Source of the DNA: Gammaproteobacteria bacterium
Lineage (GTDB): Bacteria; Pseudomonadota; Gammaproteobacteria; Arenicellales; Poriferihabitantaceae
DNA length: 40,650 bases
NCBI GenBank assembly: GCA_028817015.1
Contig: JAPPQJ010000021.1
Coordinates: 1-40,650, forward strand
Direction: 5' to 3'
A model generated the notes under the pieces. It had not been told where the DNA came from and did no database searches. It worked only from the letters and a program-made list of their open reading frames with translations. The position numbers and the translations under genes are program-made. This document shows, piece after piece, positions 1,964-33,154 of the stretch (position 1 is its first letter; the number at the start of each line of letters is the position of its first letter).

Positions 1964-2083
1964 AGCGTGTTGTCGGTTGTCGGATTGGGGGGTGCAGGAT
2001 GTCCCGAGTCGGGGGCAAAAGCAACCGTTTTTTGCGCCGCCGCTGCGGGTAATCAATGCGGCCGCCGTCGGTGTTAGAATCCG

Positions 2084-3082
2084 ATGCGGACTGATTCGGA
2101 TATGCCGATGGTTGCGGAATTTTCCGTTGCGCCGATGCTGAATGTAACCGACCGGCACTGCCGGATGTTTCTGCGCCTGTTTTCCGGGCGCATGAAATTA
2201 TACACCGAGATGACCGTGTGCGGCGCCGTCATCCACGGCCAGCGCGCGCGTTTCCTGGATTTCGACCCGCGCGAGCGCCCGCTGGCGCTCCAACTGGCGG
2301 GCTCCGACCCGGCCCAACTGGCATGGTGCGCGCGCCTCGCCGAGGAGGCCGGATACGACGAGGTCAACCTCAACATCGGCTGCCCCAGCGCGCGCGTTCA
2401 GAACGGCCGCTTCGGCGCCTGCCTGATGGCCGAGCCCGGCCGGGTGGCGGATTGCGTGGCGGCGATGCGCGCGGCGGTCGCCATTCCGGTGACGGTGAAA
2501 ACCCGCACCGGCATCGACAACCGCGACAGTTATGAGCACCTGGCGGCGTTCATCGCCCGGGTGTCGCAAAGCGGCTGCGAGCACTTCATCATCCACGCCC
2601 GCAAAGCCTGGTTGCAGGGCCTGAGCCCGAAGCAGAACCGCCTGGTCCCGAAGTTGCGTTACGAGCGCGTGTATCGCCTGAAACGGGATTTCCCCGCCAT
2701 CCGCTTCACGATCAACGGCGGCATCAGTACCCTCGACCAGGCGCTCGGCCATTTGCGGCACGTCGACGGCGTCATGATCGGGCGCGAGGCGCGCCATCGT
2801 CCGTGGATGCTGAGCGCGGTTGACCGGGTTATCTTCAAAGCGGCGGATGCGGCGCCCGCCACCCGGGTTGAAACGGTGCGGGCGTATCTGCCCTATGTCG
2901 AGCAGCAACTGGCGCGCGGGGTTTATCTGCGGCATCTGACCCGGCATATCCTGGGGCTGTTCCACGGGCAGCCGGGGGCGCGCGGCTGGCGGCGGCATTT
3001 GTCGGGGCAGGGGTCAGGGCAGGGGGCCGGGGTTGAGGTGATTCGCGAGGCGTTGAAAATCGTTGAAGAGGCGGCCGGGTGA
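2084..3082 (+). CDS. dusA: tRNA-dihydrouridine synthase A
   Basis: FSVAPM..TDRHCR, LYTEM, DEVNLNIGCPS.RVQNGRFGACLM, IHARKAWLQGLSPKQNR. True start may be slightly downstream (2102 or 2108). Confidence 0.95.
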   Translation: MRTDSDMPMVAEFSVAPMLNVTDRHCRMFLRLFSGRMKLYTEMTVCGAVIHGQRARFLDFDPRERPLALQLAGSDPAQLAWCARLAEEAGYDEVNLNIGCPSARVQNGRFGACLMAEPGRVADCVAAMRAAVAIPVTVKTRTGIDNRDSYEHLAAFIARVSQSGCEHFIIHARKAWLQGLSPKQNRLVPKLRYERVYRLKRDFPAIRFTINGGISTLDQALGHLRHVDGVMIGREARHRPWMLSAVDRVIFKAADAAPATRVETVRAYLPYVEQQLARGVYLRHLTRHILGLFHGQPGARGWRRHLSGQGSGQGAGVEVIREALKIVEEAAG

Positions 3083-3097: not shown

Positions 3098-3126
3098 TTG
3101 AGTCTGTATGCCTGGCGGTATAGAAT
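3098..3126 (+). promoter_or_regulatory. Putative sigma70 promoter heading the TRAP/paa/hmg block
   Basis: TTGAGT (3098-3103), 17 nt, TAGAAT (3121-3126). RBS-like AGAGGAG at 3154-3160. Confidence 0.55.
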
Positions 3127-3168
3127 GCCGGGCATCGTCAATATCAGATGACCAGAGGAGTCAAACAA

Positions 3169-4176
3169 ATGAAATCATTGTATCGATTCGCGTTGCTGGC
3201 CGGCTCGCTGTGCGTCAGCGGCACGGTGTTTGCCGTGGACATGACCGTCGGCACCTGGCTCAACCCCAAGCATCCGCAAAACGCCGTGGTGCTGAAAACC
3301 TGGGGCGAGTGGATCGACATCGCCACCGAAGGCCGGGTGCAGTTGCAACTCAAATACCACCAGGGGCATCCCAAGGGCGTTTTCGGCGATGTCGAGGACG
3401 GCAATTACGATGCCGGGTGGTCGTTTCACGGCTACCTGCCGGGGAAATTCAAACTGACCAGGATGGCCGAGTTGCCGCTGTTAGGCGCCGAGGCCGAGGC
3501 GGCGTCGCTGGCATACTGGCGCGTTCACCGGAAGTATTTGGCCAGGGCCAACGAGCACCGGGGCATGGTGCTCGCCGGGTTGTTTCTGCACGGCCCGGGG
3601 CAGATCATGCTGCGCGAGCCGGTCGACTCGCTGGACGACATGAGGAACAAGAAAATCCGCATCGGCGGCGGCGTGCAGACCCAGATCGCCGAGTCGCTGG
3701 GTGTCAAAGGCATCTCCGCCCCCGGCTCCAAAGTTTATGAAATTCTTTCGCAAGGCGTCGCCGACGGCGTGTTCATGCCGGTCGGTGAGCAGAACACCAT
3801 GCGCCTGTATGAGGTAACCCGTTTCATCTACAAGGCGCCGGCGGGCATGTATTTGGGCAGTTTCGGCATCTTCATCAACCCCGATTTTCTGAAAAAGGTC
3901 GGCGCCAAGGACGCCGAAGCCATCATGGAGGTGTCGGGCGAGAGTCTGTCGCTGCTGGCCGGGCGCGCCTGGGGCGAGAACGATAACATCGGCATCACCA
4001 AAGCCAGGCAGGCCGGCGTGCAAATCGTCGACTGGTCGGATGCCGATGTGGAGCGCTTCACCGCCCTGACCGGCGACATCGAGCGCGACTGGCTTGAATC
4101 GGTTGCGGACCGCCCGGTGGATGCGGCCGGGGCATTGCGCGAATTTCGCCAGGTGGCGCGCGCCTATCCGTTTTAG
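3169..4176 (+). CDS. dctP: TRAP transporter substrate-binding protein (DctP family)
   Basis: Signal peptide ending VFA, DDMRNKKIRIGGG, VYEILSQGVADG, 335 aa. ATG 3169 follows a GGAG RBS. dctQ/dctM lie nearby. Confidence 0.9.
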   Translation: MKSLYRFALLAGSLCVSGTVFAVDMTVGTWLNPKHPQNAVVLKTWGEWIDIATEGRVQLQLKYHQGHPKGVFGDVEDGNYDAGWSFHGYLPGKFKLTRMAELPLLGAEAEAASLAYWRVHRKYLARANEHRGMVLAGLFLHGPGQIMLREPVDSLDDMRNKKIRIGGGVQTQIAESLGVKGISAPGSKVYEILSQGVADGVFMPVGEQNTMRLYEVTRFIYKAPAGMYLGSFGIFINPDFLKKVGAKDAEAIMEVSGESLSLLAGRAWGENDNIGITKARQAGVQIVDWSDADVERFTALTGDIERDWLESVADRPVDAAGALREFRQVARAYPF

Positions 4177-4213
4177 TTTTTTTTTTCCACCCTGGCCCGT
4201 TGACGGGGGCGTC

Positions 4214-4495
4214 ATGAACGACACGGTGTTATACGAGGTGTTTGTGCGCTCCCATCACGCCGCCGGCCATCAGCATGTCGGCAGCCTGCGGGCCACCGGC
4301 CCCGAAGAGGCTCTGCTGCATGCGCGGGATTTATACACCCGGCGCAATGAAGGAGAGAGTTTGTGGGTGGTGCGCGCCGATGCGGTCACGGCCAGCGAGC
4401 CGGGCCAGCGCCACTCGCTGTTTAAGCCGGCGGCCGGCAAAGGCTACCGCCACCCGACCGCCTTTCCGCTTCACCCGGGCGTGAAAAACATGTAG
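4214..4495 (+). CDS. paaB: 1,2-phenylacetyl-CoA epoxidase subunit B
   Basis: LYEVFVRS...HVGSLRA...ALLHARDLYTRRNEG.SLWVV...K.YRHPT, 93 aa. Confidence 0.92.
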   Translation: MNDTVLYEVFVRSHHAAGHQHVGSLRATGPEEALLHARDLYTRRNEGESLWVVRADAVTASEPGQRHSLFKPAAGKGYRHPTAFPLHPGVKNM

Positions 4496-4551
4496 CGCCT
4501 GGCGCCGGCCGCGCGCGAGGCTGCGGGCGGCCAGGCCAGCGGAGGTGTCAT

Positions 4552-5025
4552 TTGCGTCACCGGATCAGCCAGTATCTGTCGGTCATCTCGGCCTTCCTGT
4601 TGTTCATTTTGATGTTGATCACGGTGGTCGATGTGATCGGCCGCTATGGCTTTAATCAGCCGCTGGCCGGCTCCAGTGAGTTGACCGAAATTTGCCTGAG
4701 TCTGATCATCTTCGCGGCGTTCCCGCTGTTGTGCCGCAACAACGACCACATCGCCGTCGATTTGCTCGAAAACCGCTTCAGCGCGCGCTTCAAGCGCATC
4801 CGCAACCGCGTCGTTCAAGCGGTGGTCAGCGTCTGCCTGCTGACCCTGGGTTACGGGCTTTTCCTGCTGGGGCTCCGCGCCCGCCGGGATGCGCTGGTTA
4901 CCGAAATTCTGGAAATGCCGAACGATGTGTTTTTGTTCCTGATGGCGTTTTTACTGCTGCTGTCGGGGGCCATGAGCGTTTGCATTCTGTTCACCGCTGA
5001 TGCCGCCGGGGACGGTCAGCCATGA
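4552..5025 (+). CDS. dctQ: TRAP transporter small permease
   Basis: Four hydrophobic segments, DVIGRY.FN.P..GS.EL, HIAVDLL. TTG start after GGAGG. Overlaps dctM by 4 nt. Confidence 0.9.
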   Translation: MRHRISQYLSVISAFLLFILMLITVVDVIGRYGFNQPLAGSSELTEICLSLIIFAAFPLLCRNNDHIAVDLLENRFSARFKRIRNRVVQAVVSVCLLTLGYGLFLLGLRARRDALVTEILEMPNDVFLFLMAFLLLLSGAMSVCILFTADAAGDGQP

Positions 5026-6347
5026 CCGTCGCGCTGTTCGGTTTTGCCGCGCTGTTGTTGCTGATTTTGCTGAGGATACCGCTGTTGGCGGCCATGGGTG
5101 TAGTCGGTTTTTTCGGTTTCGCGGTGACCCAGGGGCTGTTGACCGAAACCGGCTGGTGGGATTTCAACTGGAAGGGAGTGGTCTATCTAATCGCCAGAAC
5201 CGCGGTGTCGGTCACCCAGTCCTACGAATTGTCGGTCATCCCGCTGTTTCTGCTCATGGGGGATTTTGTCGCCCAGGGCGGGTTGTCGAAAGATTTATAC
5301 CGGCTGGCCTATGTTTATTTCGGATACAAGCGCGGCGGCCTGGCGGTGGCCACCATCGTCGCCTGCGGCGGTTTTTCCTCGGTGTGCGGTTCATCGCTGG
5401 CGACCACCGCGACCATGGGCCGCATCGCCTATCCCGAAATGAAACGCCTCAACTACGGCACCAGCCTGGCCAGTGCGTCCATCTCCGCCGGCAGCACGCT
5501 GGGCATTCTCATCCCGCCGAGCGTCATCCTGATCATCTACGGCCTGCTCACCGAGCAAAGCATTCGCGAATTGTTCGCCGCCGGCTTTCTGCCCGGGCTG
5601 CTCGGCATCGTATTGTATGTGGTGGCGATCAAACTGGTGGTGTGGCGCCGCCCGGACATCGCCCCGGCGGGCGGCCGCGAGGACCGGCGGGCCAAATGGG
5701 GCGCGCTGAAAAACGTCTACCATACCGTCCTGTTGTTCACGGTCATCATGGGCGGCATCTATTTCGGCGTGTTCACGCCCACCGAAGCGGCCGGCATCGG
5801 CGCCTTCGGCGGATTTCTGATCGGTTTGCTGCGCCGAACTCTCACCCCCGCCGTGTTGATCGACATCCTCAAGGGCGCTGCCGTCACTTCCGTGAAATTG
5901 TTTTCGCTGCTCATCGGCGCGCTGATTTTTTCCCGTTTCATCAGCAACACCGGCGTGGTGGAGGAGTTGACCGCGCTCATCGCATCGTGGTCGGTCAACC
6001 CCTATTTCGTCATCATCCTGATCATGCTGGTGTATATCGTGCTGGGCATGATTCTGGAGAGTTTGTCGATGATCCTGCTGACCGTGCCGCTGTTTTTCCC
6101 GATAGTCTCGCAACTGGGGTTCGATTTGGTGTGGTTCGGCATTTTGGTGGTGGTGATCACCGAAATCAGTTTAATCACGCCGCCGGTCGGCTTGAATGTG
6201 TTCGTGCTGTCGAGCATCATCCGCGACTTGACCCCCAGGCAGATTTTCCGCGGCGTGCTGCCGTTCTGGTGCGCCGACCTGGTTCGCCTGCTGCTGCTGA
6301 TTTTGTTTCCGGCGGTCAGTTTGTGGCTGCCCCGTTTGTTGTATTGA
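5022..6347 (+). CDS. dctM: TRAP transporter large permease
   Basis: IPLFLLMG, GSSLAT.ATMG, GTLGILIPPS-like segment, GVFTPTEAA, LITPPVGLNVFV. Confidence 0.95.
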   Translation: MTVALFGFAALLLLILLRIPLLAAMGVVGFFGFAVTQGLLTETGWWDFNWKGVVYLIARTAVSVTQSYELSVIPLFLLMGDFVAQGGLSKDLYRLAYVYFGYKRGGLAVATIVACGGFSSVCGSSLATTATMGRIAYPEMKRLNYGTSLASASISAGSTLGILIPPSVILIIYGLLTEQSIRELFAAGFLPGLLGIVLYVVAIKLVVWRRPDIAPAGGREDRRAKWGALKNVYHTVLLFTVIMGGIYFGVFTPTEAAGIGAFGGFLIGLLRRTLTPAVLIDILKGAAVTSVKLFSLLIGALIFSRFISNTGVVEELTALIASWSVNPYFVIILIMLVYIVLGMILESLSMILLTVPLFFPIVSQLGFDLVWFGILVVVITEISLITPPVGLNVFVLSSIIRDLTPRQIFRGVLPFWCADLVRLLLLILFPAVSLWLPRLLY

Positions 6348-6373
6348 AACCTTAACCCGGCAACGAGGGCGCG

Positions 6374-7150
6374 ATGACATTTCACCCCGGCGACTTGAAC
6401 GCGCAGGAAAAACTTCTCCTGCACCTGGCCGACAACGGTTTAATCATGAACCACCGCCTGTGCCAGTGGTGCGCGCATGCGCCGGAACTGGAACTGGAGA
6501 TGGGGCTGGCCAATATCGGTTTGGACCACCTGGGGCAGGCGCGGTTGTGGCTGGGCCGCCTGATTGAAACCCTGGCCGCGCGCGGAGTTGAAACCAGCGA
6601 GGATGAGTTGGCGTATTTTCGCGATGACGATCAATACTTCAACCTTTTGCTGGTGGAGCAGCCCAACGACGATTTCGCCATGACCGTCGGCAAGTTGTTT
6701 TTGTATGATGCGTTCCACCATCTGGCATTGAACCAGTTGTCGCGGGCCGGCGACCCGCCGGTCGCCGCCATCGCCGGGAAAGCGGCGGTTGAGGTCGGTT
6801 ATCATCTGCGGTTTTCCACGCACTGGATGAAGGTGATGGTCGGCGGCACCGAATACAGCGCCGGGCGAATGCGGGTCGCGCTGGACTATCTCTGGCCGTT
6901 GTGCGGGGAATTTTTCACTCCCGCCGACTATGAAAAAACCGTCAAGCAACCGCGAGTCGCCTTTGCGCAACTGAAGGATGCGTGGCTGCAAAGCGTGCTG
7001 CCCGTGGTGCGGCCCCTGGGGTTGGCGCTTGGCGAGGCGCTGGCGTTTCACCATCCTTCCGGCAAACACAACCGCCACAGCGAACACCTGGGTTATGTTC
7101 TCGCCGAAATGCAGGTGCTGGCGCGCAAACACGCGGGGGCCGCATGGTAG
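6374..7150 (+). CDS. paaC: 1,2-phenylacetyl-CoA epoxidase subunit C (structural beta subunit)
   Basis: LAD..LI..HRL.QWC.HAPELE....LANIGLD.LGQAR, EDELAYFRD, LLVEQPN.DFA, HSEHLGYVLAEMQ. Confidence 0.93.
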   Translation: MTFHPGDLNAQEKLLLHLADNGLIMNHRLCQWCAHAPELELEMGLANIGLDHLGQARLWLGRLIETLAARGVETSEDELAYFRDDDQYFNLLLVEQPNDDFAMTVGKLFLYDAFHHLALNQLSRAGDPPVAAIAGKAAVEVGYHLRFSTHWMKVMVGGTEYSAGRMRVALDYLWPLCGEFFTPADYEKTVKQPRVAFAQLKDAWLQSVLPVVRPLGLALGEALAFHHPSGKHNRHSEHLGYVLAEMQVLARKHAGAAW

Positions 7151-7599
7151 CCGAAAACGCCGCCGGCACCGCGCAAATCAAGGCCATTCTCGGCAAGGTG
7201 CGCGACCCGGAATTGCCGATGATCTCCATCTGCGATTTAGGGATCGTGCGCCGCATCGAGGAGGGCGGCGGGCAGTATACGGTGGTGATCACCCCGACCT
7301 TCAGCGGCTGCCCGGCGATGACCATGATCGAGCAAAACATCGCTGCGGCGCTGGCCGAGGCGGGAGTGGAATCGTTTCGCATCGTCAAAGAACTGTCGCC
7401 GCCCTGGCAATCCACCGATGTCACCGAGGCGGGGCGCAAGTTGCTGATGGCAAACGGCATCGCCGTTGCCTGCGAAGGCGTGCGCTGTCCCCATTGTCAA
7501 AGCGACAACACCGAGACGGTCAGCGAATTCGGCGCCACCGCCTGCAAGCGGTTTGCAAGGTGCCGGTGTTGCCGGGAGCCGTTCGAGGTTTTCAAATGA
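7144..7599 (+). CDS. paaD: Phenylacetate-CoA oxygenase maturation subunit PaaD
   Basis: V.DPELP.ISI.DLGIVR, ITPTFSGCPA, CPHC.S..T..VSEFGATACK...RC..CREPFE.FK. Confidence 0.93.
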   Translation: MVAENAAGTAQIKAILGKVRDPELPMISICDLGIVRRIEEGGGQYTVVITPTFSGCPAMTMIEQNIAAALAEAGVESFRIVKELSPPWQSTDVTEAGRKLLMANGIAVACEGVRCPHCQSDNTETVSEFGATACKRFARCRCCREPFEVFK

Positions 7600-8708
7600 G
7601 CCCGCCGGCCGCGGCCAGGCGCGGGTTTTTCCCGGTGGCGATTCGCTCCATCGTCGCCGAAACCGGCGACTCCCGGGTGATCGAGTTGTCCCCGTTGCAA
7701 GACCAGGACCGGGGGCGCATCACCCACCGAAGCGGCCAGCATGTCTCGGTCAGGGTCACCGCAGGTGGGCGGGAAATCTATCGCACCTACTCGATCTGCG
7801 AGCCGTCGTCATCCGGGAAAATCGCCCTGGGCGTGCGGTTGCTGCCAAACGGCGTTTTTTCCGACTGGCTGCGCCGCTGCAAGGCGGGCGACCGGCTGGC
7901 GGTCAGTGGTGCGCAAGGGCGTTTCTACCTGCGTCCGCCCGAACATCCGCGCCAGCAGAGTTTGTTCATCGCCTCCGGCAGCGGCATCACCCCGGTGATC
8001 AGCATGCTGGAAGAATTCCTCGGCGCACACCCCGAGGCCGGCGCGCTGCTGCTGTATGCCAACCGCAACACCGCATCCACCATGTTTCTGGAGCGCCTGA
8101 TGCAGTTGAAGAACCGGTTCATGGCGCGTTTCACGCTGCACTTTTTCACCTCGCGGGAGCAGCAGGCCGTGGCCTGGCGCAACTCCCGCATAGACGCCGC
8201 CGCGCTGGGCGGATTGCAGGACAAGCGCCTGTTGCGGGTGCCGGATTTCCGGCATTTCTACTTGTGCGGCCCGCCGCCGATGATGGAGTCGTGCGGCCGA
8301 TTCCTGCGCGCCGGCGGCGTGGACGGCGCGCGCATCCACAGCGAACACTTCGCCCCGGCCCGCCGCCTCGACGCCTCCGACTCTCCCCAACCGCAGTCGG
8401 TGCGCGGCCCCGACCCGGCGGCCCGCATCGTGGCGCGCGTCAGCGTCATCTTGAACGGCACACGGCGCGAATTCAACTATTGCGACCGCGACCCGTCGGT
8501 GCTCGCGGCGGCGGCGCGCCAGCATATCGCCCTGCCTTTCGCCTGCGCCGGCGGCGTCTGCGGAACCTGCCGCTGCAAAATCCTGCAGGGCCGGGTGCTG
8601 ATGGAAAAAAACCACGCGCTGGAAGCGCAAGACATCGCCGACGGTTTCGTCCTGGCCTGCCAGTCCCGGCCGCAAGACGGCAAACTGTCGTTGTCGTTCG
8701 ATTATTGA
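7596..8708 (+). CDS. paaE: Phenylacetyl-CoA epoxidase reductase (FAD/NAD plus C-terminal 2Fe-2S)
   Basis: RTYSIC, ASGSGITPVIS, YLCGP..M, PFACAGGVCGTCRC...LACQS. ATGA overlap with paaD. Confidence 0.92.
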   Translation: MSPPAAARRGFFPVAIRSIVAETGDSRVIELSPLQDQDRGRITHRSGQHVSVRVTAGGREIYRTYSICEPSSSGKIALGVRLLPNGVFSDWLRRCKAGDRLAVSGAQGRFYLRPPEHPRQQSLFIASGSGITPVISMLEEFLGAHPEAGALLLYANRNTASTMFLERLMQLKNRFMARFTLHFFTSREQQAVAWRNSRIDAAALGGLQDKRLLRVPDFRHFYLCGPPPMMESCGRFLRAGGVDGARIHSEHFAPARRLDASDSPQPQSVRGPDPAARIVARVSVILNGTRREFNYCDRDPSVLAAAARQHIALPFACAGGVCGTCRCKILQGRVLMEKNHALEAQDIADGFVLACQSRPQDGKLSLSFDY

Positions 8709-8769
8709 ACGGGCCGTTTGCGCGGAAGCGGTATTCGTGATATTTTGCCGGCCGCGTGGAGAGTGGATC

Positions 8770-9546
8770 ATGGACAACATCATTTTCAGCATCACAAACC
8801 GACTGGCGGTGATTACCCTGAACCGCCCCGAGTCGCTCAACAGTTTGAATGCCGACATGCTCGGTGAGTTGAACCGGGCGGTGCGAGAGGTGGCCGACTC
8901 GGACGCCCGCGCGCTGTTGATCAGCGCCAAAGGCCGGGGCTTTTGTTCCGGCCAGGATTTGTCCGACCCCGGCATCGACGCCCGGGCCGGCGGCGACTTG
9001 GGGCGAATGCTGGAGCAATACTACAACCCGCTGATGCGCGCCTTGTCGGCGCTGGACATCCCCGTGGTCAGCGCGGTGGGCGGGGTGGCGGCCGGCGCCG
9101 GAGTCAGCCTGGCATTGGCGGCCGACATCATGCTGATGCACCGGTCGGCGTCCCTGGTGCTGGCTTTCAGCCGCATCGGCCTGGTGCCGGACGCCGGCAG
9201 TTCGTGGTTGTTGAGCCGCGCCGTCGGCCTGCGGCGCGCCACCGCGCTGGCCCTGATGGGCGCGACCATCAGCAGCACGCAGGCCCTGGAGTGGGGGCTG
9301 GCCTGGGCGGTATATGAAGACGACTTCCACGACCAAACCGAAACAATCTGCGCCCGGCTGGCCGCTGCGCCGACCAGGGGGCTGGGATACACCAAGCGGG
9401 TGTTTGGCGGTGCGGCGGTCAACGACTTTGACCGGCAACTGGAGGTGGAAAAGGATTTTCAGCGCCTGGCCGGAAACAGCGCCGATTACCGCGAAGGGGT
9501 GGACGCTTTCTTCGCCGGCAGAAAACCCCAATTCACCGGCCAGTAA
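8770..9546 (+). CDS. paaG: Epoxyphenylacetyl-CoA isomerase (crotonase family)
   Basis: ITLNRPE.LNS, GRGFCSGQDLS, LEQYYNPL, IGLVPDAG.SW.L, DYREGV.AF...RKP.F.G. In paa context. Confidence 0.88.
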   Translation: MDNIIFSITNRLAVITLNRPESLNSLNADMLGELNRAVREVADSDARALLISAKGRGFCSGQDLSDPGIDARAGGDLGRMLEQYYNPLMRALSALDIPVVSAVGGVAAGAGVSLALAADIMLMHRSASLVLAFSRIGLVPDAGSSWLLSRAVGLRRATALALMGATISSTQALEWGLAWAVYEDDFHDQTETICARLAAAPTRGLGYTKRVFGGAAVNDFDRQLEVEKDFQRLAGNSADYREGVDAFFAGRKPQFTGQ

Positions 9547-9559
9547 GGAAACCCAGGCC

Positions 9560-10042
9560 GTGGAGCGCCCGATTGAACAGCGCCAATGCGCTGCGCTGCG
9601 CGAACAGGATGACCGCCTGGCGTTGCGGTGCGTGGAAACCATGCTAAGCGAAGACCATTGCTCGGCGGGGCTCGGCATGGTGCTGGAGGGCGCGGGGGCC
9701 GGCTGGGCGAAGTTGCGCATGCCGGTAACCCGCAGCATGATCAACGGCTACAATGTCTGCCACGGCGGGTTGATCTTTGCGCTGGCGGACAGCACCTTTG
9801 CGTGCAGTTGCAACGGTTACAACCGGGTGACGGTGGCCAGCGGCTGCCAAATCGAATACCTGCGCCCGGCTCTCCTCGGCGATGTTCTAAGCGCCCACGG
9901 CAGCGAGCGCAAACGGGGGAAATGGACCGGCGTCTATGACATCGAAATCCGCAATCAGAAAAAGCAACTCGTCGCGTTGTTTCGCGGCAAATCCTTCACC
10001 ACTCAAAAACCCATCATCGAAAGGCGGGAGAAGCGGGGCTGA
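9560..10042 (+). CDS. paaI: (Hydroxy)phenylacetyl-CoA thioesterase
   Basis: M.NG...CHGGLIFALADSTFA.SCN, G.YDIEI.NQ...LVALFRGKS. GTG start after AAGGA. Confidence 0.9.
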   Translation: MERPIEQRQCAALREQDDRLALRCVETMLSEDHCSAGLGMVLEGAGAGWAKLRMPVTRSMINGYNVCHGGLIFALADSTFACSCNGYNRVTVASGCQIEYLRPALLGDVLSAHGSERKRGKWTGVYDIEIRNQKKQLVALFRGKSFTTQKPIIERREKRG

Positions 10043-10082
10043 AGCGCTTTTTCCGCCGGACCGCGTTTTTCAGGAAAACCAC

Positions 10083-11363
10083 ATGCCGAACCTTGAACCC
10101 CTGGACAAAATCGAACGCGCCGGCGCCGATGAACTGCGCGATTTGCAGTTGCGGCGGATGCGGTGGAGTTTGCGGCATTGCTATGAGCGCATCGGTTTTT
10201 ACAAAAACCGCTTCGATGAATGCGGCGTGCATCCCGACGACCTGAAGGAGTTGAGCGATCTGGCCCGGTTTCCGTTCACCACCAAGCGGGATTTGCGCGA
10301 CGCCTATCCGTTTGGGATGTTCGCCAGGCCGCCTTCGGACATCGTGCGCGTTCATGCGTCGAGCGGCACCACCGGCAAGCCGACCATCGTCGGCTACACG
10401 CGCAAGGACATAGACGACTGGGCGCACTGCATGGCCCGCAGCATTCGCGCCGCCGGCGGCGACGCCCACAGCGTGGTGCATGTCGCCTACGGCTACGGAT
10501 TGTTCACCGGCGGCCTGGGCGCCCACTACGGCGCCGAGAAATTAGGCGCCATGGTGATCCCGGTATCCGGCGGTATGACCACCCGCCAGGCGCAACTCAT
10601 TCACGATTTGCGGCCCGACATCATCATGGTCACGCCGTCTTACTTTCTCAACATCGTTGACCAATACATGGCCCAGGGGTGGGACCCCCGGCAATGGTCG
10701 CTGCGGGTCGGCATTTTCGGCGCCGAGCCGTGGAGCGGCGCGATGCGCGATTCCATCCAGGCCGGCACCGCCCTCAAGGCGACCGACATCTACGGGCTGT
10801 CCGAAGTGATGGGGCCCGGCGTCGCCCAGGAGTGCCTGGAAACCCAGGACGGGCTGACCGTGTGGGAGGATTATTTCTACCCGGAAATCATCGACCCGGA
10901 AACGCAGCAGACCCTGCCCGACGGTTGCGAAGGCGAACTGGTGTTCACCACGCTGGCCAAGGAGGGCACGCCGCTGGTGCGCTACCGCACCCGGGACTTA
11001 ACCGCGCTGTTGCCCGGCACCGCCCGCACCATGCGCCGCATGATGCGCATCAAGGGGCGCAGCGACGACATGATGATCGTGCGCGGGGTCAACGTCTATC
11101 CGTCTCAAATCGAGGAACACATCCTGCAGATGCCGGAATTGTCGGCCACCTATCAACTGGAAATCGCCCGCCGGGGCCGCCTCGATGAATTGCTCATTCA
11201 TGTCGAGATGAATCAACCCGGCCAGCCTCACCAGCCGGCCGGGAAAACCCTGCAGCAGCGCATTAAAGACACCATCGGCATCAGCAGCCAAGCGGTGTTT
11301 CACGAGCCGGGGACGCTGCCCCGGTCGCAGGGCAAGGCGGTGCGCGTGAAGAGTCCGCAGTGA
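10083..11363 (+). CDS. paaK: Phenylacetate--CoA ligase
   Basis: RVHASSGTTGKPT, YGYGLFTGGLGAHYGAE, DIYGLSEVMGPGVA.EC, GRSDDMMIVRGVNVYPSQIE, LPRS.GKA.RV. Confidence 0.95.
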   Translation: MPNLEPLDKIERAGADELRDLQLRRMRWSLRHCYERIGFYKNRFDECGVHPDDLKELSDLARFPFTTKRDLRDAYPFGMFARPPSDIVRVHASSGTTGKPTIVGYTRKDIDDWAHCMARSIRAAGGDAHSVVHVAYGYGLFTGGLGAHYGAEKLGAMVIPVSGGMTTRQAQLIHDLRPDIIMVTPSYFLNIVDQYMAQGWDPRQWSLRVGIFGAEPWSGAMRDSIQAGTALKATDIYGLSEVMGPGVAQECLETQDGLTVWEDYFYPEIIDPETQQTLPDGCEGELVFTTLAKEGTPLVRYRTRDLTALLPGTARTMRRMMRIKGRSDDMMIVRGVNVYPSQIEEHILQMPELSATYQLEIARRGRLDELLIHVEMNQPGQPHQPAGKTLQQRIKDTIGISSQAVFHEPGTLPRSQGKAVRVKSPQ

Positions 11364-11475
11364 TGGTTGGCGCCGCATCGGTGCCGTCGAACCGGCGGTT
11401 TGTTGCGCCGCCGCCGGCCGGATTGCGCATTGAACCGGCCTTCTCAACCCACTTCATCGCCTGGCGAAAACCGAC

Positions 11476-12441
11476 ATGACTCAACCCGCAACCTTCGCCT
11501 CCACCGGCGATCTTGACCCGAAGCCGGTCACCTTTGCCGAACTGGGGCCGAAGGGCTCCGGCTGTTACGGTTTCACCGCCGAAGGCGACCCCAACTCCGG
11601 GGTCATCATCGGCGATGATTCGGTGATGGTGGTCGATGCCCAGGCGACTCCGGGGCTGGCCCGCAAAGTCATCGAGTGCATCCGCACGGTCACCGACAAG
11701 CCGGTCAGCCACATCGTGCTGACCCACTATCACGCCGTGCGGGTGCTGGGGGCGGGCGCTTATGGCGCATCGCAAATCATCATGAGCGACCGCGCGCGCG
11801 ATGATGTCGCTGAGCGCGGGCGGCAGGACTGGGATTCGGAATTCGGCAGATTCCCCCGCCTTTTCGAGGGGCACGAGGAGATCGCCGGGCTGACCTGGCC
11901 GAACGCCACCTTCAGCCGCTCGATGCGCGTGTATTTGGGCGGCCGGGAGGTGCAACTGCATCACCTCGGGCGCGGCCACACGGCCGGCGACATCGTCGTT
12001 TATGTGCCCGACAGCAAGGTCCTGTTTTCAGGCGACCTGGTCGAATATCGCTCCGCCTGCTATTGCGGCGACGCCCATTTGGCCGACTGGCCGGCGACCC
12101 TCGACAACCTGGTGCAATTTGATATTCAGGCGCTGGTTCCGGGGCGCGGCGACGCCTTGACCGATGCGGCGATGATTGCCGAGGGCGTGGCGTTGACGCG
12201 GGATTTTCTGTCCACACTGTATGATTCGGTGAAGTCCAGCGTGGCCGAAAAGCGCGGCTTGAAGGAGGCGTTCGACGCCTGCAACCAGGCCATGCGCCCC
12301 AAGTTCGGCGACTTCGCCATCTTTGAACATTGCCAGCCGTTCAATGTCGCCCGCGCATACGACGAGGCGCAGGGCCTGGAACACCCCCGCATCTGGACCG
12401 CGCAGCGCGACCTGGAAATGTGGGAGCAACTGAGCGACTGA
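11476..12441 (+). CDS. MBL-fold metallo-hydrolase of the type linked to homogentisate clusters
   Basis: FAS.GD, AEGDPNSGVIIGDD, VLTHYHAVRVLGA, GRGHTAGD, FSGDLVE, LVPGRG. Confidence 0.85.
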   Translation: MTQPATFASTGDLDPKPVTFAELGPKGSGCYGFTAEGDPNSGVIIGDDSVMVVDAQATPGLARKVIECIRTVTDKPVSHIVLTHYHAVRVLGAGAYGASQIIMSDRARDDVAERGRQDWDSEFGRFPRLFEGHEEIAGLTWPNATFSRSMRVYLGGREVQLHHLGRGHTAGDIVVYVPDSKVLFSGDLVEYRSACYCGDAHLADWPATLDNLVQFDIQALVPGRGDALTDAAMIAEGVALTRDFLSTLYDSVKSSVAEKRGLKEAFDACNQAMRPKFGDFAIFEHCQPFNVARAYDEAQGLEHPRIWTAQRDLEMWEQLSD

Positions 12442-14099
12442 TGGATGGGGGCCCGATGAACACCGCCTGCCCGCACTGGCGAGAGGTTGAAAAACTGCAG
12501 TTTGTGCATTCGTGCCACCGCGACTCCGAACAGTCGGTGGTCATCGCCGGCGCCGGCCCGATTGGGTTGACTTTGGCCATCGACCTGGCGCAGCGCGGGG
12601 TGCCAAGCGTGGTGCTGGAAAAGTCGGACCGTCTGTCGGACGGCTCGCGCGCGCTGTGCTGGTCGAGGCGCACGCTGGACATCTTCAACCGCCTCGGCAT
12701 CGCCGGGCCGATGCGCGAGACCGGCGTTCAATGGCAGGTGGGCCGCGTGTTCCACCGACAAGAGCAAATCTACAACCTGCGGCTGACCCCCGACACCTTT
12801 CCCGAAAACCCGTTTTTCGTCAATTTGCAGCAGCCGCTTTGCGAATACCTGCTGTTGCAGGCGTGCGCGCAATATCCCCAAATTGATTTGCGCTGGGCCA
12901 ACCGGTTGACCGGTGTGCGGGCGCATCCCGGCGGCGGCGTTGCCCTGACCGTGCGCTGCGACCGCGGAGAATACCGCATCGACACCGAATATTTAGCCGC
13001 CTGCGACGGGGCCAGATCCACGGTGCGGGAAAAACTCGGCCTGCGTTTTGCCGGCCGGCGGTTCAACGACCGTTTCCTAATCGCCGACATCGAGATGGCC
13101 GGCGATTTTCCGAACGAGCGCCGGTTCTGGTTTGAGCCGCCGTTTCACGACGGCCAATCGACGCTGTTGCACAAGCAGGCGCAAAACCTGTGGCGGGTTG
13201 ATTTTCAGTTGAACACCGGGCCCGGGGTGTCCAAAGCGCAACTGCGCCTGGACCGCGACCGGCGCTCGGTGCGCAAGCGCATTCGCGCCTTTTTGGGGCG
13301 CGATGATTTGGACTTTGAAATCGTCTGGTGCTCGGTCTACTTGTTCACCTGCCGGCGCATCGAGCGGTTCCGCCACGGCAACATTTTTTTCGCCGGCGAC
13401 AGCGCGCATTTAGTCTCGCCGTTTGGCGCGCGGGGCGGCAACGGCGGCATCCAGGACAGCGACAACCTCGGCTGGAAACTGGCCGAAGTCCTGCACGGCC
13501 ATGCCGCCGACCGGTTGCTGGACAGTTATGACGCCGAGCGCGTCGCCGCCAGCGATGAGGACATTCTGAACTCGTCGCGCACCACCGATTTCATGACCCC
13601 GAAGAGCGCCAGGTCCAAACGCATCCGCGACACCGTGCTGAAACTGGCGCGCTCCCACGACTTCGCCGTGCACATGGTCAACGCCGGGCGCATGAGCCGC
13701 CCTTTTTCCTACCGCCACCTGGGCCCGTTCAAGGATCATCCCAACGGCATCCGCGTCCGGGCCGGCGATGCGGGCCTCGACATTCCGCTCATTCACGCCC
13801 GCACCGGCGCGCGCAGTTATCTGCTCAGGCACATTCGCGACTACACCATGGTCGCGTATCAGCGCCCGGCGGTGGCGTGGCCGGGGCGCGCCGCAGCCTG
13901 CGATGTCGTTCATATCGGCGATGCCCGGCAGGGGGAAGGGGAATATCTCGACTCGCAGGGTTTGATGAAAAAGCATTATGTCGGCGACACGGGCGGCTAT
14001 GTGTTGTTTCGCCCCGACCAGCATATCCTGGGCGTGTGGCGCGACCGCGAACCGGATGCCGTCATCGCGGCGCTTGAACGGCAGCGCGGCGCGCGTTGA
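12441..14099 (+). CDS. FAD-dependent aromatic monooxygenase (MhpA/MhaA-like), putative hydroxyphenylacetate hydroxylase
   Basis: VIAGAGPIGL, ACDGARS, FAGDSAHLVSPFGARGGNGGIQD..NLGWKL, C-terminal RPDQH domain. Start at 12441 (TGATG overlap) or 12456. Substrate inferred from hmgA context only. Confidence 0.85.
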   Translation: MDGGPMNTACPHWREVEKLQFVHSCHRDSEQSVVIAGAGPIGLTLAIDLAQRGVPSVVLEKSDRLSDGSRALCWSRRTLDIFNRLGIAGPMRETGVQWQVGRVFHRQEQIYNLRLTPDTFPENPFFVNLQQPLCEYLLLQACAQYPQIDLRWANRLTGVRAHPGGGVALTVRCDRGEYRIDTEYLAACDGARSTVREKLGLRFAGRRFNDRFLIADIEMAGDFPNERRFWFEPPFHDGQSTLLHKQAQNLWRVDFQLNTGPGVSKAQLRLDRDRRSVRKRIRAFLGRDDLDFEIVWCSVYLFTCRRIERFRHGNIFFAGDSAHLVSPFGARGGNGGIQDSDNLGWKLAEVLHGHAADRLLDSYDAERVAASDEDILNSSRTTDFMTPKSARSKRIRDTVLKLARSHDFAVHMVNAGRMSRPFSYRHLGPFKDHPNGIRVRAGDAGLDIPLIHARTGARSYLLRHIRDYTMVAYQRPAVAWPGRAAACDVVHIGDARQGEGEYLDSQGLMKKHYVGDTGGYVLFRPDQHILGVWRDREPDAVIAALERQRGAR

Positions 14100-14105
14100 A
14101 CGCGG

Positions 14106-15428
14106 ATGCCTGAACTGCAATACATGACCGGTTTCGGCAACACCTTTGAAACCGAGGCGTTGCCGAACGCCCTGCCGCGGGGCCGCAACTCGCCGCAGCG
14201 GTGCAATTACGGCCTGTATGCGGAGCAGTTGAGCGGCACCGCGTTTACCATGCCAAAGCACGCCAACGCGCGCTCGTGGCTGTATCGAATGCTGCCTTCG
14301 GTCAAACATGCCGGCGCCTTTCGCGCCGAATCCCCCGGCCACATTCGCACCGCCCCCTGCCGCGAGCCGCATTCGCTGCCCATCGGCGCGCAGCGCTGGA
14401 GCGCCACGCCGCCGCCGGATCATCCGGCCAACTTTATGGCGGGGATGCTGACCATGACCACGGCCGGCGACAGCGACGCGCACACCGGCATGGCGGCGCA
14501 TGTGTATGCCTGCAATACATCCATGACCGACGACTATTTCTTCAACCGGGACGGCGAATATCTCATCGTGCCGGAGCAAGGCGGGGTCCGTTTCGACACC
14601 GAGTTCGGCATACTGGAAGCGCATCCGGGCGAAATCGTCATCATCCCGCGCGGCGTGGTTTTCCGCGTCGCATTGCCAGAGGGGAGCGCCAGAGGCTATG
14701 TGTGCGAAAACTACGGCGCCCGCTTTGAACTGCCCGAGCGCGGGCCAATCGGCGCCAACGGCCTGGCCAGCCCGCGTGATTTCCAATACCCGGTGGCCGC
14801 TTATGAAGAAGGCCGGGGGCGCGGCCGCCTGTGGGCCAAATGGGGCGGCGATTTATACTCCTGCGAGATCGACCACTCGCCTCTGGATGTGGTGGCCTGG
14901 CACGGAAACTATGCGCCGTGCAAGTATGACTTGCGCGCTTTTTCGCCGCTCGGGGCGGTCGCCTTCGACCACCCCGACCCGTCTGTTTTTACCGTGCTGA
15001 CTTCGCCGTCATCAACGCCGGGCGTCGGCAATGTCGATTTTGTCATCTTTCCCGAGCGATGGATGGTCGCCGAAGACACCTTCCGCCCGCCGTGGTTTCA
15101 CCGCAACATCATGTCCGAATTCATGGGTTTGATCGACGGGGTATACGACGCCAAACCGCGCGGCTTTCACCCGGGGGCGATGAGTCTGCACAACTCCATG
15201 CTGCCGCACGGCCCCGACGCCGATGCGTTTGAAGCGGCCAGCCGCGCCCGGTTGAAACCGGTCAAGCTGGAAAACACCCTGGCGTTCATGTTCGAGAGCA
15301 GCCTGCCGCAGCGCGTCACCCGGTATGCGGCCGAGAGTCCGCAACGCCAGGCGGACTACCGCGACGGCTGGAGGCCCCTCAAAAAAACGTTTCACCAACA
15401 ACCACCCGATGAAACTGGCAACGCTTAA
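14106..15428 (+). CDS. hmgA: Homogentisate 1,2-dioxygenase
   Basis: [73 protein letters not shown]. Confidence 0.97.
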
Positions 15429-16386
15429 AAACGACTGCAGAGACGGCCGGCTGGTCGTGGTCAACCGCGACCTCAGCCGTTTTGCCGAGGCCCCCGCCGA
15501 CCTGCCGACTCTGCAAGCCGCGCTCGATGACTGGAGCCGCGCCCGCCATTCGCTGGCCGCGGTTTACCGCGCCCTGCAATCGGGTGACATCGACGGGCGG
15601 GCGATGGCCATGGAGCAACTGGGTGCGCCCCTGCCGCGCGCCTACCAGTGGCTGGACGGTTCCGCGTATCTCAATCATGTTGAGCTGGTTCGCAAAGCGC
15701 GCGGCGCGCAGATGCCGTCCACATTTTTGACCGACCCGCTGATGTATCAGGGCGGCTCCGACATCCTGCTGGGCTGCCGGGACCCCATCGCCGCCGGCAG
15801 CGAGCGGCACGGCATCGACCTGGAAGCGGAAATTTGCGTGGTGACCGACGATGTGCCGGCGGCGTGCCCGCCGCAACAGGCTGAGCGGCGCATCCAACTG
15901 ATCGGGATGTTGAATGACATCTCGCTGCGCAACCTCATCCCGGCGGAACTGGCCAAGGGTTTCGGCTTTGTGCACGGCAAGCCGCCGACCGCTTTTGCGC
16001 CGGTCCTGGTGACGCCCGATGAATTGGGGGGCGCCTGGAAGGACGCCAAAATTCACCTGCCCCTGCGCACCTGGATCAACGGTCAATGGCTGGGGCATCC
16101 CGACTGCGCGACCGACATGCAGTTCAACTTCGCGGAACTCATCGCCCACGCCGCGAAAACGCGGCCCCTCGGCGCCGGCACGATCATCGGCTCCGGCACC
16201 GTTTCCAACCGCGATGCGTCGCGCGGGTTCTGCTGTCTGGCCGAGGCCCGCATGATCGAAACCATCCGGCACGGCAAACCGCGCACCGGGTTTCTTCGAT
16301 TCGGCGACCGCGTGAAAATCGACATGACCGACGCGCGCGGCAACAGTCTTTTCGGCAGCATCGAGCAAACGGTGGTGAAACGGTGA
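15409..16386 (+). CDS. Fumarylacetoacetate hydrolase family protein (probable fumarylacetoacetase)
   Basis: MKLATLK...[61 protein letters not shown]. Lies between hmgA and maiA. Confidence 0.9.
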
Positions 16387-17018
16387 AACTCCACGGTTAT
16401 TGGAGGTCCTCGGCGACCTACCGGGTGCGCATCGCGCTGAACTTGAAAGCGGTGCGGTGTGAGTTGGCGCCCGTCAACCTGCTTTCCGAAGACGACAAAC
16501 AGCGCTATGGCGACAAGAATCCCACGGCGCTGGTGCCCACGCTGGAGTTGAGCGGCGGCGCCTGCATTCGCCAGTCCATGGCCATCCTTGATTATCTGGA
16601 GCGCGAATACCCCGAGCCCGCGCTTATCCCGGCGGATTCAACCCGGCGGGCCGCGGTGCTGGCGTTTGCCTGCGACATCGCCATGGAGGTTCATCCGCTC
16701 AACAACCTGCGCGTGTTGCGGCGCCTTAAGGATCGGCACGGTTTTTCCGAAGAGGGAGCGGTCGAATGGATGCACCACTGGATGCACGCTTCTTTTGTGA
16801 ACCTGGAGAAAATGGCGGACGCTTCGGGGCGTTATTGTTTCGGCGATGCGCCGACCCTGGCCGATGTGTTCTTAATCCCCCAGATGTATAACGCCGCGCG
16901 CTGGGAACTGGATGTGTCCGCCTACCCCAAACTCGTGCGCATCAACGACCACGCCACCCGGCAAAGCGCGTTCAGCAAAGCCCACCCCAGCCGGCAAGCG
17001 GACGCAGTCGGCGCATGA
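16383..17018 (+). CDS. maiA: Maleylacetoacetate isomerase (GST zeta)
   Basis: GYWRSSATYRVRIALNLK, QSMAILDYL, HPLNNLRVL, FGD.PTLADV.LIPQ.YNA, AHPSRQ.DA. GTG start. Confidence 0.93.
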   Translation: MKLHGYWRSSATYRVRIALNLKAVRCELAPVNLLSEDDKQRYGDKNPTALVPTLELSGGACIRQSMAILDYLEREYPEPALIPADSTRRAAVLAFACDIAMEVHPLNNLRVLRRLKDRHGFSEEGAVEWMHHWMHASFVNLEKMADASGRYCFGDAPTLADVFLIPQMYNAARWELDVSAYPKLVRINDHATRQSAFSKAHPSRQADAVGA

Positions 17019-17218
17019 AGCGGATGAGCCTGGCGAACAACTTTGACGACGCCGATGCGTTCTACGAGCGCCTGGTGGCCGTTCACGAATCGCTCGACGA
17101 CGAGCAGTCGGATCAGTTCAATCTGTCGCTGATTTTGATGTTGGCCAATCACATCGGCGATGCGGCGACGCTGGCCGATTTAATGGACAAAGCCGAACAG
17201 TCGGCATGCAACCGGTGA
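17015..17218 (+). CDS. DUF2783-like small protein (possible MhaB-type coupling subunit)
   Basis: 67 aa, N..D.DAFYE.LV..H..L.DEQS...N..LIL.LANHIGD signature. ATGA overlap with maiA. Confidence 0.85.
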   Translation: MKRMSLANNFDDADAFYERLVAVHESLDDEQSDQFNLSLILMLANHIGDAATLADLMDKAEQSACNR

Positions 17219-17229
17219 TGGGCGGGGGG

Positions 17230-30007: not shown

Positions 30008-30130
30008 CTGCAAGGGGGCGTCGGTGATGTTGTCATGTCAAATGCGCTGATGCGGGGGCGCCTGCCGGCAACCTGCGATTAGTCGAATGGGGGGCGGCCG
30101 CGGTTCTAATCTCCGCCCGGCGGGTTGAAT

Positions 30131-30179
30131 TTCCCTCCCCCTTGATCCCTCTCCCACAGGGAAAGGGCCGGAGAGAGGG
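30131..30179. repeat. Degenerate CCCTCTCCC...GGGAGAGGG-type palindromic intergenic element
   Basis: CCCTCTCCC-ACA-GGGAAAGGG hairpin (30147-30167) flanked by TTCCCTCCCC and GGAGAGAGGG. Resembles dispersed REP/RIME-like elements. Only one copy in the window. Confidence 0.45.
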
Positions 30180-30277
30180 CGGCGCAACGAAGAAAAGCCG
30201 CTGGACGCATGGCGAGGCGGTTGGCGGGCGACGAGTCAGCGGCCATGCTCGGTCGCCGCGCGGCAAAGCGGCGCAGG

Positions 30278-33148: not shown

Positions 33149-33154
33149 GCGCGC

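Follow-up and report, generated by a model that had tools for sequence, protein, structure and literature searches.

The window analyzed here, that is the whole stretch, comprises bases 1–40,650 of contig C175 in the genome of a sponge-associated gammaproteobacterium (G000; 2.52 Mb in 220 contigs, 93% complete, 3.8% contaminated, 64% G+C). Between positions 3169 and 17218 of its + strand we found 16 co-oriented genes in the order dctP, paaB, dctQ, dctM, paaC, paaD, paaE, paaG, paaI, paaK, a gene for a metallo-beta-lactamase-fold protein (MBL), a flavin adenine dinucleotide (FAD) monooxygenase gene, hmgA, a gene of the fumarylacetoacetate hydrolase family (FAH), maiA and a gene coding for a DUF2783 protein (Table 1). 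Genes of a tripartite ATP-independent periplasmic (TRAP) importer and of the upper phenylacetate (paa) pathway thus share a single block with genes for the degradation of homogentisate. The widest intergenic gap, between paaK and the MBL gene, measures 112 nucleotides (nt; 11364-11475) and holds only a weak terminator-like hairpin, two further gaps measure 61 and 13 nt if the preferred starts of paaG (8770) and paaI (9560) are taken, and at seven junctions the genes overlap by 1–20 nt. Four promoter-like sites were seen against 2.8 expected, and within the operon region the only one is located upstream of dctP. The block is bordered by dus and gshA upstream and by a convergent DEAD-box helicase gene downstream. 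We read the block as a single operon for the catabolism of phenylacetate-type aromatic acids.

The initial annotation, made from the sequence alone, had described a block of this kind, with short gaps and overlaps and with the upper paa genes K, B, C, D, E, G and I, and our analysis confirmed it, PaaE and PaaG being best matches that score under their cut-offs. The closest solved relative of PaaG is the E. coli enzyme (4fzw_C, 261 bits). The central homogentisate pathway is complete in the block, with hmgA and maiA over their cut-offs and FAH recognized at the Pfam level. As had also been noted, paaZ, paaJ, paaF and paaH are all missing between 3169 and 17218, and no regulator was found inside the block (no genome-wide search was made for PaaX, PaaR and PaaY).

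Table 1. Features of the window, with profile scores (NCBIfam, Pfam and PRK models) set against curated cut-offs.
Feature	Position	Strand	Evidence and remarks
dctP, TRAP solute-binding protein with signal peptide, aromatic-acid-binding clade	3169..4176	+	Pfam DctP 77.1 bits
paaB, between dctP and dctQ	4214..4495	+	TIGR02157 97.6 bits vs 85.45
dctQ, small membrane subunit of TRAP	4552..5025	+	Pfam DctQ 75.8 bits
dctM, large TRAP permease	5022..6347	+	TIGR00786 313.4 bits vs 268.45
paaC, structural epoxidase subunit	6374..7150	+	TIGR02158 208.1 bits vs 133.35
paaD	7147..7599	+	TIGR02159 141.3 bits vs 108.15; start overlaps paaC stop codon (GTGA)
paaE, divergent reductase (FAD, NAD, 2Fe-2S domains)	7596..8708	+	TIGR02160 285.2 bits, under the 420.8 cut-off, yet best match; Pfam Fer2, NAD_binding_1, FAD_binding_6; ATGA overlap with paaD
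paaG, 1,2-epoxyphenylacetyl-CoA isomerase homologue	8770..9546	+	TIGR02280 306.1 bits, under 345.15; alternative GTG start 8737
paaI, hydroxyphenylacetyl-CoA thioesterase	9560..10042	+	TIGR02286 139 bits vs 118.9; GTG start, AAGGA upstream; alternative ATG 9641
paaK, phenylacetate-CoA ligase	10083..11363	+	TIGR02155 650.4 bits vs 646.3
MBL, cytoplasmic metallo-beta-lactamase-fold hydrolase	11476..12441	+	Pfam Lactamase_B 62.9 bits
MhaA-like class A FAD aromatic hydroxylase, 552 amino acids	12441..14099	+	PRK08132 608.2 bits vs 416; FAD_binding_3 212.4 bits
hmgA, homogentisate 1,2-dioxygenase	14106..15428	+	TIGR01015 639.9 bits vs 510.75
FAH, fumarylacetoacetate hydrolase family protein, two-domain bacterial type	15409..16386	+	Pfam FAA_hydrolase 102.2, FAA_hydro_N_2 79.3 bits; no NCBIfam equivalog
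maiA, maleylacetoacetate isomerase, glutathione-dependent	16383..17018	+	TIGR01262 241.9 bits vs 171.05
DUF2783, 67 amino acids, candidate MhaB-type small coupling subunit	17015..17218	+	Pfam PF10932 74.4 bits vs 25
Sigma-70-like promoter match upstream of dctP	3098..3126	+	TTGAGT-17-TAGAAT, 9/12; consensus match only
Homocysteine S-methyltransferase-methyltransferase fusion	28247-30013	-	
MR/MLE enolase-superfamily gene	32039-33148	-	
Rieske oxygenase alpha subunit	33155-34603	-	
DAO-GCV_T fusion	36755-39280		
Formate-tetrahydrofolate ligase	39812 onward		

The layout of the block is real and not the product of a mis-assembly, as shown by the gene order in a sister species (G006) and by independent contigs. 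G006 has the identical 16 genes in the identical order. We also compared four metagenome runs from three studies, all labelled sponge metagenome, one of them possibly the source sample. One contig of 14,377 nt from run X1 covers positions 3117-17493 with 39 differing letters, and in run X8, which belongs to another study, contigs of a strain ~94–95% similar bridge the junctions dctP-paaB-dctQ (4065-5423) and paaK-MBL (10855-11991).

The catalytic subunit of the epoxidase, PaaA, is encoded outside the block, alone at G000:C214:9322-10188 (501.3 bits vs a cut-off of 280), so that all epoxidase subunits are encoded in the genome but not together. G006 likewise has its paaA elsewhere; the solitary genes of the two species (G000:C214:9226-10254 and G006 L157:9757-10635) are 88% identical. 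In G000 paaA is neighbored by an efflux gene of the major facilitator superfamily, a gene for a 292-amino-acid protein and one for an AlkB-like 2-oxoglutarate oxygenase. The neighbors differ between the two species, and therefore provide no candidate partner gene. Within the operon, TRAP and paa genes are interleaved (dctP-paaB-dctQM-paaC), an arrangement kept in G006 and in the contig of the X8 strain, and it looks as though dctP had replaced the paaA of an ancestral paaA-paaB pair. Another genome of the same order, G032 (L158, C13:64000-83900), carries paaABCDE plus an extra PaaC-like gene between gshA/UPF0047 and dus. The same gshA...dus neighborhood also flanks the block studied here (window 365-3082), which hints at an old insertion site of paa genes in the order.

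The displacement of paaA, which has different surroundings in G000 and in G006, could be expected if the paa genes did not serve the catabolism of phenylacetate at all, being used instead for detoxification or for another aryl-acetyl-CoA (coenzyme A) or being a decaying remnant, so that only the homogentisate genes would be functional. The scores of PaaE and PaaG, both under their equivalog cut-offs, would agree with this. Against such decay, all reading frames are intact, PaaK, PaaB, PaaC, PaaD and PaaI are over their equivalog cut-offs, and the ratio of nonsynonymous to synonymous substitution rates (dN/dS) between G000 and G006 was between 0.08 and 0.27 for each of the 17 genes, paaG (0.245) and the paaA outside the block (0.082) among them. 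Values in this range in every paa gene indicate that these genes are in use, and we consider a non-catabolic role very improbable.

The importer appears to be of a type that handles aromatic acids. The top sequence match of DctP in the PDB was 4p56 (212 bits), which was also the best structural match (Z 39.2) of its predicted model (predicted local distance difference test score, pLDDT, of 83.4); its ligand is presumably mandelate. The 15 best structural matches consist of 4p56, TarP structures in complex with cinnamate, coumarate, caffeate, ferulate or 4-hydroxyphenylacetate, TRAP binding proteins of the marine "aromatic acid" type and four further TRAP binding proteins. Z values were 34–39 for the aromatic-acid binders and ~30 for the other TRAP binding proteins.

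A classical paa pathway requires opening of the ring, and here the genome-wide search, which the initial annotation had suggested for paaZ, paaJ, paaF and paaH, gave a mixed picture: no PaaZ could be recognized, but genes for the lower steps do exist. The best PaaZ score in G000 (TIGR02278) was 107.7 bits vs 562.8, and none of the six matches extends beyond position 484 of the 664 of the model, leaving the hydratase part uncovered. When the PaaZ of G013, a member of the same family that has one, was used as tblastn query, only generic aldehyde dehydrogenases 23–25% identical were retrieved and the hydratase part was again unmatched. The PacL/PaaN_2-type dehydrogenase (TIGR02288) reached at best 53.8 bits vs 578.75 in G000, with a model that does detect its targets in G322 (890.7) and G374 (586.9), and the alternative crotonase-type oxepin-CoA hydrolase (NF046063) reached 184.2 vs 300. 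The three enzymes were also under cut-off in G006, in G011 (closed, one contig), in G019 (two contigs) and in G032, the best score for the alternative hydrolase being 184–211 bits against the cut-off of 300. In addition, 4-hydroxyphenylpyruvate dioxygenase (HPPD, TIGR01263) had no matches in G000 and was not found in G006, G011 or G019, so that in these genomes the MhaA-like hydroxylase is the only recognizable source of homogentisate.

As for the lower pathway, a box cluster on C19 of G000 holds paaJ/pcaF (681.2 bits vs 597) and a gene resembling paaH (644 bits, slightly short of the 669.4 cut-off), next to boxB, an ATP-binding cassette (ABC) transporter and a benzoate-CoA ligase, and a PaaF-like hydratase 49% identical to the PaaF of G019 is encoded on C181. 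In both G000 and G011 the sole paaH-paaJ pair adjoins boxB. The box pathway offers an explanation of why paaG, paaH and paaJ have been kept, as it relies on identical isomerase, dehydrogenase and thiolase reactions. In the corresponding loci of G011 (L161, C1:972000-991900) and G000 (C19:1-11280), boxB is found with paaH, pcaF, the ABC transporter and benzoate-CoA ligase and without adjacent boxA or boxC. The genes boxA, boxB and boxC are contiguous in G019; boxC of G000 is broken up over two contigs, one part ending C208 and the other beginning C164, and no boxA was found in G000 by tblastn above 60 bits. BoxC and BoxD were considered as substitutes of PaaZ, the indication being a mere co-occurrence among related genomes (BoxB in the PaaZ-less G000, G011, G019 and G032 and not in the PaaZ-positive G013). 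Secondary metabolism of the tropone type was dropped as a destination, since it would also require the hydratase domain of PaaZ.

The initial annotation had also proposed looking for the same synteny in relatives, and the adjacency of paa and homogentisate genes was indeed found to recur, in three architectures. We searched 41 genomes of the same order. PaaA was over cut-off in six of them (G000, G006, G011, G013, G019 and G032) and PaaZ in G013 only (1/41), while PaaN_2 and the alternative hydrolase were over cut-off in none of G006, G011, G013, G019 and G032. HmgA was found in exactly G000, G006, G011, G019, G032 and G037, HPPD in 4/41 (G030, G032, G034 and G036) and BoxB in 15/41, including G000, G011, G019 and G032 and excluding G013. 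The gene order in G011 is dctPQM-MBL-mhaA-DUF2783-(maiA, FAH, hmgA reversed)-paaGIKABCDE, and in G019 it is paaABCDE-(dctMQP reversed)-marR-MBL-mhaA-DUF2783-hmgA-FAH-(paaK, J, I, H, G, F reversed). Hence G000, G006, G011 and G019, in three arrangements, all combine an epoxidase without recognizable ring-opening enzyme, a homogentisate pathway without HPPD and adjacency of the two gene sets. A contig end of G014 carries paaK-MBL-mhaA-DUF2783-FAH. A metagenomic contig of an unrelated organism (L232, 15,071 nt) has paaG-paaI-paaK and, after ~2.4 kb, dctPQM-mhaA-DUF2783-MBL, and is a further independent case of this linkage. In the MBL tree, G000 with G006, G011 with G019, and G013 with G014 and G032 formed three separate supported groups (the MBL and monooxygenase trees were made with FastTree only, with an arbitrary root and long branches flagged). 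Therefore G000 and G011, members of the same genus, hold different versions of the homogentisate module beside their paa genes.

The critical enzyme of the module is the MhaA-like hydroxylase. In Pseudomonas putida U the MhaAB pair, a flavoprotein of 566 amino acids and a coupling protein of 60, is reported to convert 3-hydroxyphenylacetate to homogentisate, and the genes adjoin hmgABC in Paraburkholderia xenovorans LB400 (PMC3053370). From size, position and this literature we infer that MhaB is a DUF2783 protein. The gene for DUF2783 follows directly after that of the monooxygenase in 50 of 86 loci recovered by a more sensitive search, and a homologue search with the small protein gave four proteins, none informatively named. 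The single publication found to name DUF2783 concerns a regulon of Bradyrhizobium. The predicted complex of the hydroxylase and DUF2783 scored 0.58, the best of three controls reaching 0.01; runs shared at least 95% of contacts and the pLDDT of the partner was at least 85. This mark was attained by 116/157 solved complexes and 2/215 mismatched pairs, and scores up to 0.60 include just 18 of the 157 solved complexes together with both passing mismatches. The prediction thus lends weak support to DUF2783 being a coupling subunit of the hydroxylase. The monooxygenase of G000 and G006 lies on a long branch (0.83, FastTree), apart from the other homologues. In G013 (L151, C7:1329800-1349700) MBL-mhaA-DUF2783-FAH are found ~27 kb from the paa cluster, and HmgA was not found in this genome (94% complete), so that a different dioxygenase may cleave the product of its hydroxylase. 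In four loci of Alphaproteobacteria, too, only an HmgA-like gene of 22–25% identity is seen.

A close homologue of the MBL protein has been solved (8d2z, 371 bits; no function named), and a literature search on 8D2Z returned unrelated publications only. The protein does not fit the acquired subclass B metallo-beta-lactamases, given its score against the beta-lactamase family models (best 76.2 bits, far under the cut-off of 200), the lack of a signal peptide in the translation and the catabolic context. Cytoplasmic MBL proteins of this kind are conserved members of hmgA/FAH/mhaAB clusters across Alphaproteobacteria, and this one may carry out an unrecognized step in the catabolism of hydroxyphenylacetate or homogentisate. 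Our guess would be the opening of 2-coumaranone or homogentisate lactone, or the cleavage of the 2-hydroxyphenylacetyl thioester.

Taken together, the reading we tentatively favor, with a probability of about 40%, is that the two halves of the operon are coupled through 2-hydroxyphenylacetate, as the main or a major route of phenylacetate degradation. We infer every chemical step from the observed gene identities, layout, conservation, selection, absence of recognizable PaaZ, PacL and HPPD, and recurrent adjacency. The TarP-like TRAP system would take up the acid and PaaK would convert it to phenylacetyl-CoA. PaaBCDE, with the separately encoded PaaA, would epoxidize the ring, and PaaG would interconvert the epoxide and oxepin-CoA. 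As no PaaZ-type ring-opening enzyme was recognized, the epoxide would drain irreversibly to 2-hydroxyphenylacetyl-CoA, from which PaaI, possibly aided by the MBL hydrolase, would free 2-hydroxyphenylacetate. In what would be the critical step, the MhaA-like flavoprotein and its DUF2783 partner would hydroxylate this compound para to the hydroxyl group to give homogentisate, to be converted by HmgA, MaiA and FAH to fumarate and acetoacetate. The hydroxylase module might also accept imported hydroxyphenylacetates. Mutants of E. coli and P. putida in paaZ or paaG reportedly excrete 2-hydroxyphenylacetate, and PaaI prefers hydroxylated phenylacetyl-CoAs, in agreement with its NCBIfam name "hydroxyphenylacetyl-CoA thioesterase". 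A stricter version, in which PaaABCDE, PaaK and PaaI act as a CoA-dependent ortho-hydroxylase, the flavin enzyme is an MhaAB-type 2-hydroxyphenylacetate 5-hydroxylase and all phenylacetate passes through homogentisate as the sole route, seems to us unlikely; it would be a third bacterial way to degrade phenylacetate, made from a known dead-end side reaction. The initial annotation had put forward a hybrid route through 2-hydroxyphenylacetate, as main or as salvage route, with two independent pathways as the alternative, and the hybrid is partly supported. The missing PaaZ and HPPD, the selection on the genes, the fusion of both halves in one operon without a regulator and the recurrent adjacency, with non-orthologous versions of the module, speak for it, while the paaJ, paaH-like and PaaF-like genes elsewhere in the genome and the occurrence of the adjacency also in genomes with PaaZ or PaaN_2 do not.

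Several observations weigh against the coupling, the first being the distribution of the module. With the MBL protein as query we recovered 80 loci from species genomes (L038-L117), nearly all of Alphaproteobacteria and 58–69% identical, with up to 10 kb fetched per side. At least one of the genes for MhaA-like, HmgA, FAH and MaiA was present in 72 of the 80 (59, 40, 33 and 31 loci, respectively), and paa genes were found within the fetched stretches of none of the 80 genome loci and of one of 80 metagenome loci (L163-L242). MBL, monooxygenase, DUF2783, hmgA, FAH and maiA, often with a TRAP importer, are thus a pre-existing module that is widespread in Alphaproteobacteria without paa genes. 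The idea of the initial annotation that the MBL, monooxygenase and DUF2783 genes stand in the place of paaZ, paaJ, paaF and paaH had to be given up for this reason, and the MBL protein as a replacement of PaaZ was likewise rejected, since its homologues sit in hmgA/FAH/mhaA clusters devoid of paa genes. In the alphaproteobacterial loci L059, L067 and L081 a TRAP importer accompanies MBL-mhaA, which suggests that the substrate of the hydroxylase is imported. To this must be added that MhaAB of P. putida U, the only characterized member of the family, is reported to act with high specificity on 3-hydroxyphenylacetate (PMC3053370), and that in Cupriavidus pinatubonensis phenylacetate is reported not to be channelled via homogentisate and 2-hydroxyphenylacetate to be hydroxylated by a cytochrome P450 (PMC8449657). 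Also, paaG is kept in the operon under purifying selection and has the true E. coli isomerase as nearest relative; the oxepin-CoA that it forms is useless without a hydrolase. A substitute for PaaZ could be hidden in G000, because the genome has four aldehyde dehydrogenases without equivalog (C58, C80, C91 and C185) and ~10 crotonase-family genes, and the known alternative oxepin-CoA hydrolase is itself an inconspicuous crotonase that is hard to recognize (PMC9007349).

Alternatively, the operon may join two funnels that work independently and have a transporter and a promoter in common, an explanation we hold to be quite possible, if short of even odds. The module would then degrade an imported hydroxyphenylacetate (the 3-isomer, as in P. 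putida U, or the 2- or 4-isomer) to fumarate and acetoacetate, MhaAB beside hmgABC being a described route for 3-hydroxyphenylacetate, and the paa genes would serve the classical route, in which an unrecognized crotonase or MaoC hydrolase and one of the generic aldehyde dehydrogenases would open the ring and the PaaF-like protein of C181 and the paaH and paaJ of the box cluster would finish the degradation. Co-location would reflect related substrates and co-regulation. That the module mostly stands alone argues for this explanation, as do the presence in G000 of paaG, paaH, paaJ and a PaaF-like gene, all at hand together with the unassigned dehydrogenases and crotonases, and the full paaFGHIJK set of G019, where paaF, paaH and paaJ are retained within the paa cluster. 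Furthermore, PaaK enzymes can activate hydroxylated phenylacetates, and 3-hydroxyphenylacetate is reported to induce the paa genes of Burkholderia cenocepacia (PMC3417372). On the other hand, independent funnels demand an unknown enzyme in five small genomes (2.3–4.4 Mb, with few paralogues), two of them closed or nearly so, in which the alternative hydrolase remained at best at the 184–211 bits mentioned above. They also leave unexplained the fusion into one transcription unit devoid of a regulator and the presence of non-orthologous versions of the module beside paa in members of the same genus.

The wider class sample bears on the same question. Among 400 scored genomes, which include relatives that are not independent, PaaA was found in 20, DUF2783 in 16 and both in 11; DUF2783 was thus present in 11/20 PaaA-positive vs 5/380 PaaA-negative genomes, an association that counts for the coupling and is to be read with the fact that both proteins mark degraders of aromatic compounds. 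The other 19 PaaA-positive genomes comprise 13 with PaaZ, two with PaaN_2, one with an aldehyde-dehydrogenase-only match just under cut-off and three (G113, G169 and G341) with none of them. G169 is PaaZ-less yet without DUF2783, and G113 lacks HmgA, so that PaaZ-less paa clusters exist without the module. Conversely, DUF2783 and hmgA are found within ~10 kb of paaZ-paaA in G141 and G323, the PaaN_2-positive G322 has DUF2783 at a distance of 10 kb from paaA, and hmgA is near paaZ in G047. PaaZ-less genomes are therefore not the only ones with the adjacency, and these cases too favor two independent funnels.

Co-occurrence with PaaZ would also be expected if the operon ran the classical route by way of an unknown ring-opening enzyme and the module only cleared the 2-hydroxyphenylacetate leaking from the reactive epoxide. 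Of the 10 other genomes with both PaaA and DUF2783, six have PaaZ over cut-off, one has PaaN_2 and one the aldehyde-dehydrogenase-only match; DUF2783 is adjacent to paaA, at the distances of ~10 kb given above, in G141, G323 and G322, and the annotation of PaaI as a hydroxyphenylacetyl-CoA thioesterase would fit as well. Such a salvage branch meets the same problem of the missing enzyme as independent funnels do, the reported specificity of the P. putida MhaAB for 3-hydroxyphenylacetate does not agree with it, and a TRAP importer and a five-enzyme pathway are a large outlay for a leak. We regard it as improbable.

Bacteria are held to degrade phenylacetate by the paa pathway, with 2-hydroxyphenylacetate seen as a by-product that leads to a dead end. 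Coupling through 2-hydroxyphenylacetate, if true, would mean that a toxic side reaction has been recruited as a pathway, providing the first flavin-type 2-hydroxyphenylacetate 5-hydroxylase, and functions for DUF2783 and for a widespread MBL protein with a solved structure. If the two funnels are independent, these small and partly closed genomes would be a good place to find the unknown substitute of PaaZ. Our literature search found no publication proposing a link of phenylacetyl-CoA, 2-hydroxyphenylacetate and homogentisate in bacteria; a survey from 2026 on the remodelling of paa clusters is silent on homogentisate, and its supplements might list PaaZ-less configurations. All the parts belong to known families, and what is new is the combination of missing PaaZ and missing HPPD, the fusion in one operon and the interleaving of TRAP and paa genes. 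Downstream of the block, the gene content of window positions 28247-39280 (Table 1) suggests metabolism of methylated amines or of betaine type.

Compared with known systems, the importer resembles the TarP-type TRAP transporters (PDB 7nra, 7nr2, 7nqg, 5i7i and 4p56), which appear in the list of the 15 top structural matches to the DctP model but are just 19–35% identical to the DctP of the window; DctQ and DctM are encoded in the block as well. With the paa pathway of E. coli K-12 and P. putida (paaZ, paaABCDEFGHIJK and paaXY) the operon shares PaaK, PaaB, PaaC, PaaD and PaaI over cut-off and PaaE and PaaG as best matches, with PaaA, PaaJ and a PaaH-like protein encoded elsewhere in G000. It differs in that none of PaaZ, PacL and the alternative hydrolase could be recognized in G000, and in having paaA unlinked, paaB inside the TRAP operon and paaF, paaH and paaJ outside the cluster. 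The MhaAB and hmgABC genes of P. putida U and P. xenovorans LB400 likewise combine an FAD hydroxylase of ~550 amino acids and a small protein of 60–67 amino acids with hmgA, FAH and maiA, the likeness being one of size and gene position. Here, by contrast, DUF2783 is located three genes downstream of the hydroxylase, and the MBL gene and a TRAP importer are added. The reaction proposed here is the one carried out by OhpA of C. pinatubonensis JMP134, reported as a self-sufficient P450 2-hydroxyphenylacetate 5-hydroxylase that feeds HmgA, HmgC and HmgB and is also accompanied by a substrate-binding transporter subunit (PMC8449657). As a P450, however, OhpA is unrelated to the flavoprotein and small subunit of our operon. 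The overall logic is the same as in Aspergillus nidulans, where phenylacetate is degraded via 2-hydroxyphenylacetate and homogentisate to fumarate and acetoacetate (cited in PMC8449657). Whereas in fungi P450s hydroxylate free phenylacetate, in this operon a CoA-dependent di-iron epoxidase, followed by rearrangement, would supply the ortho-hydroxyl group.

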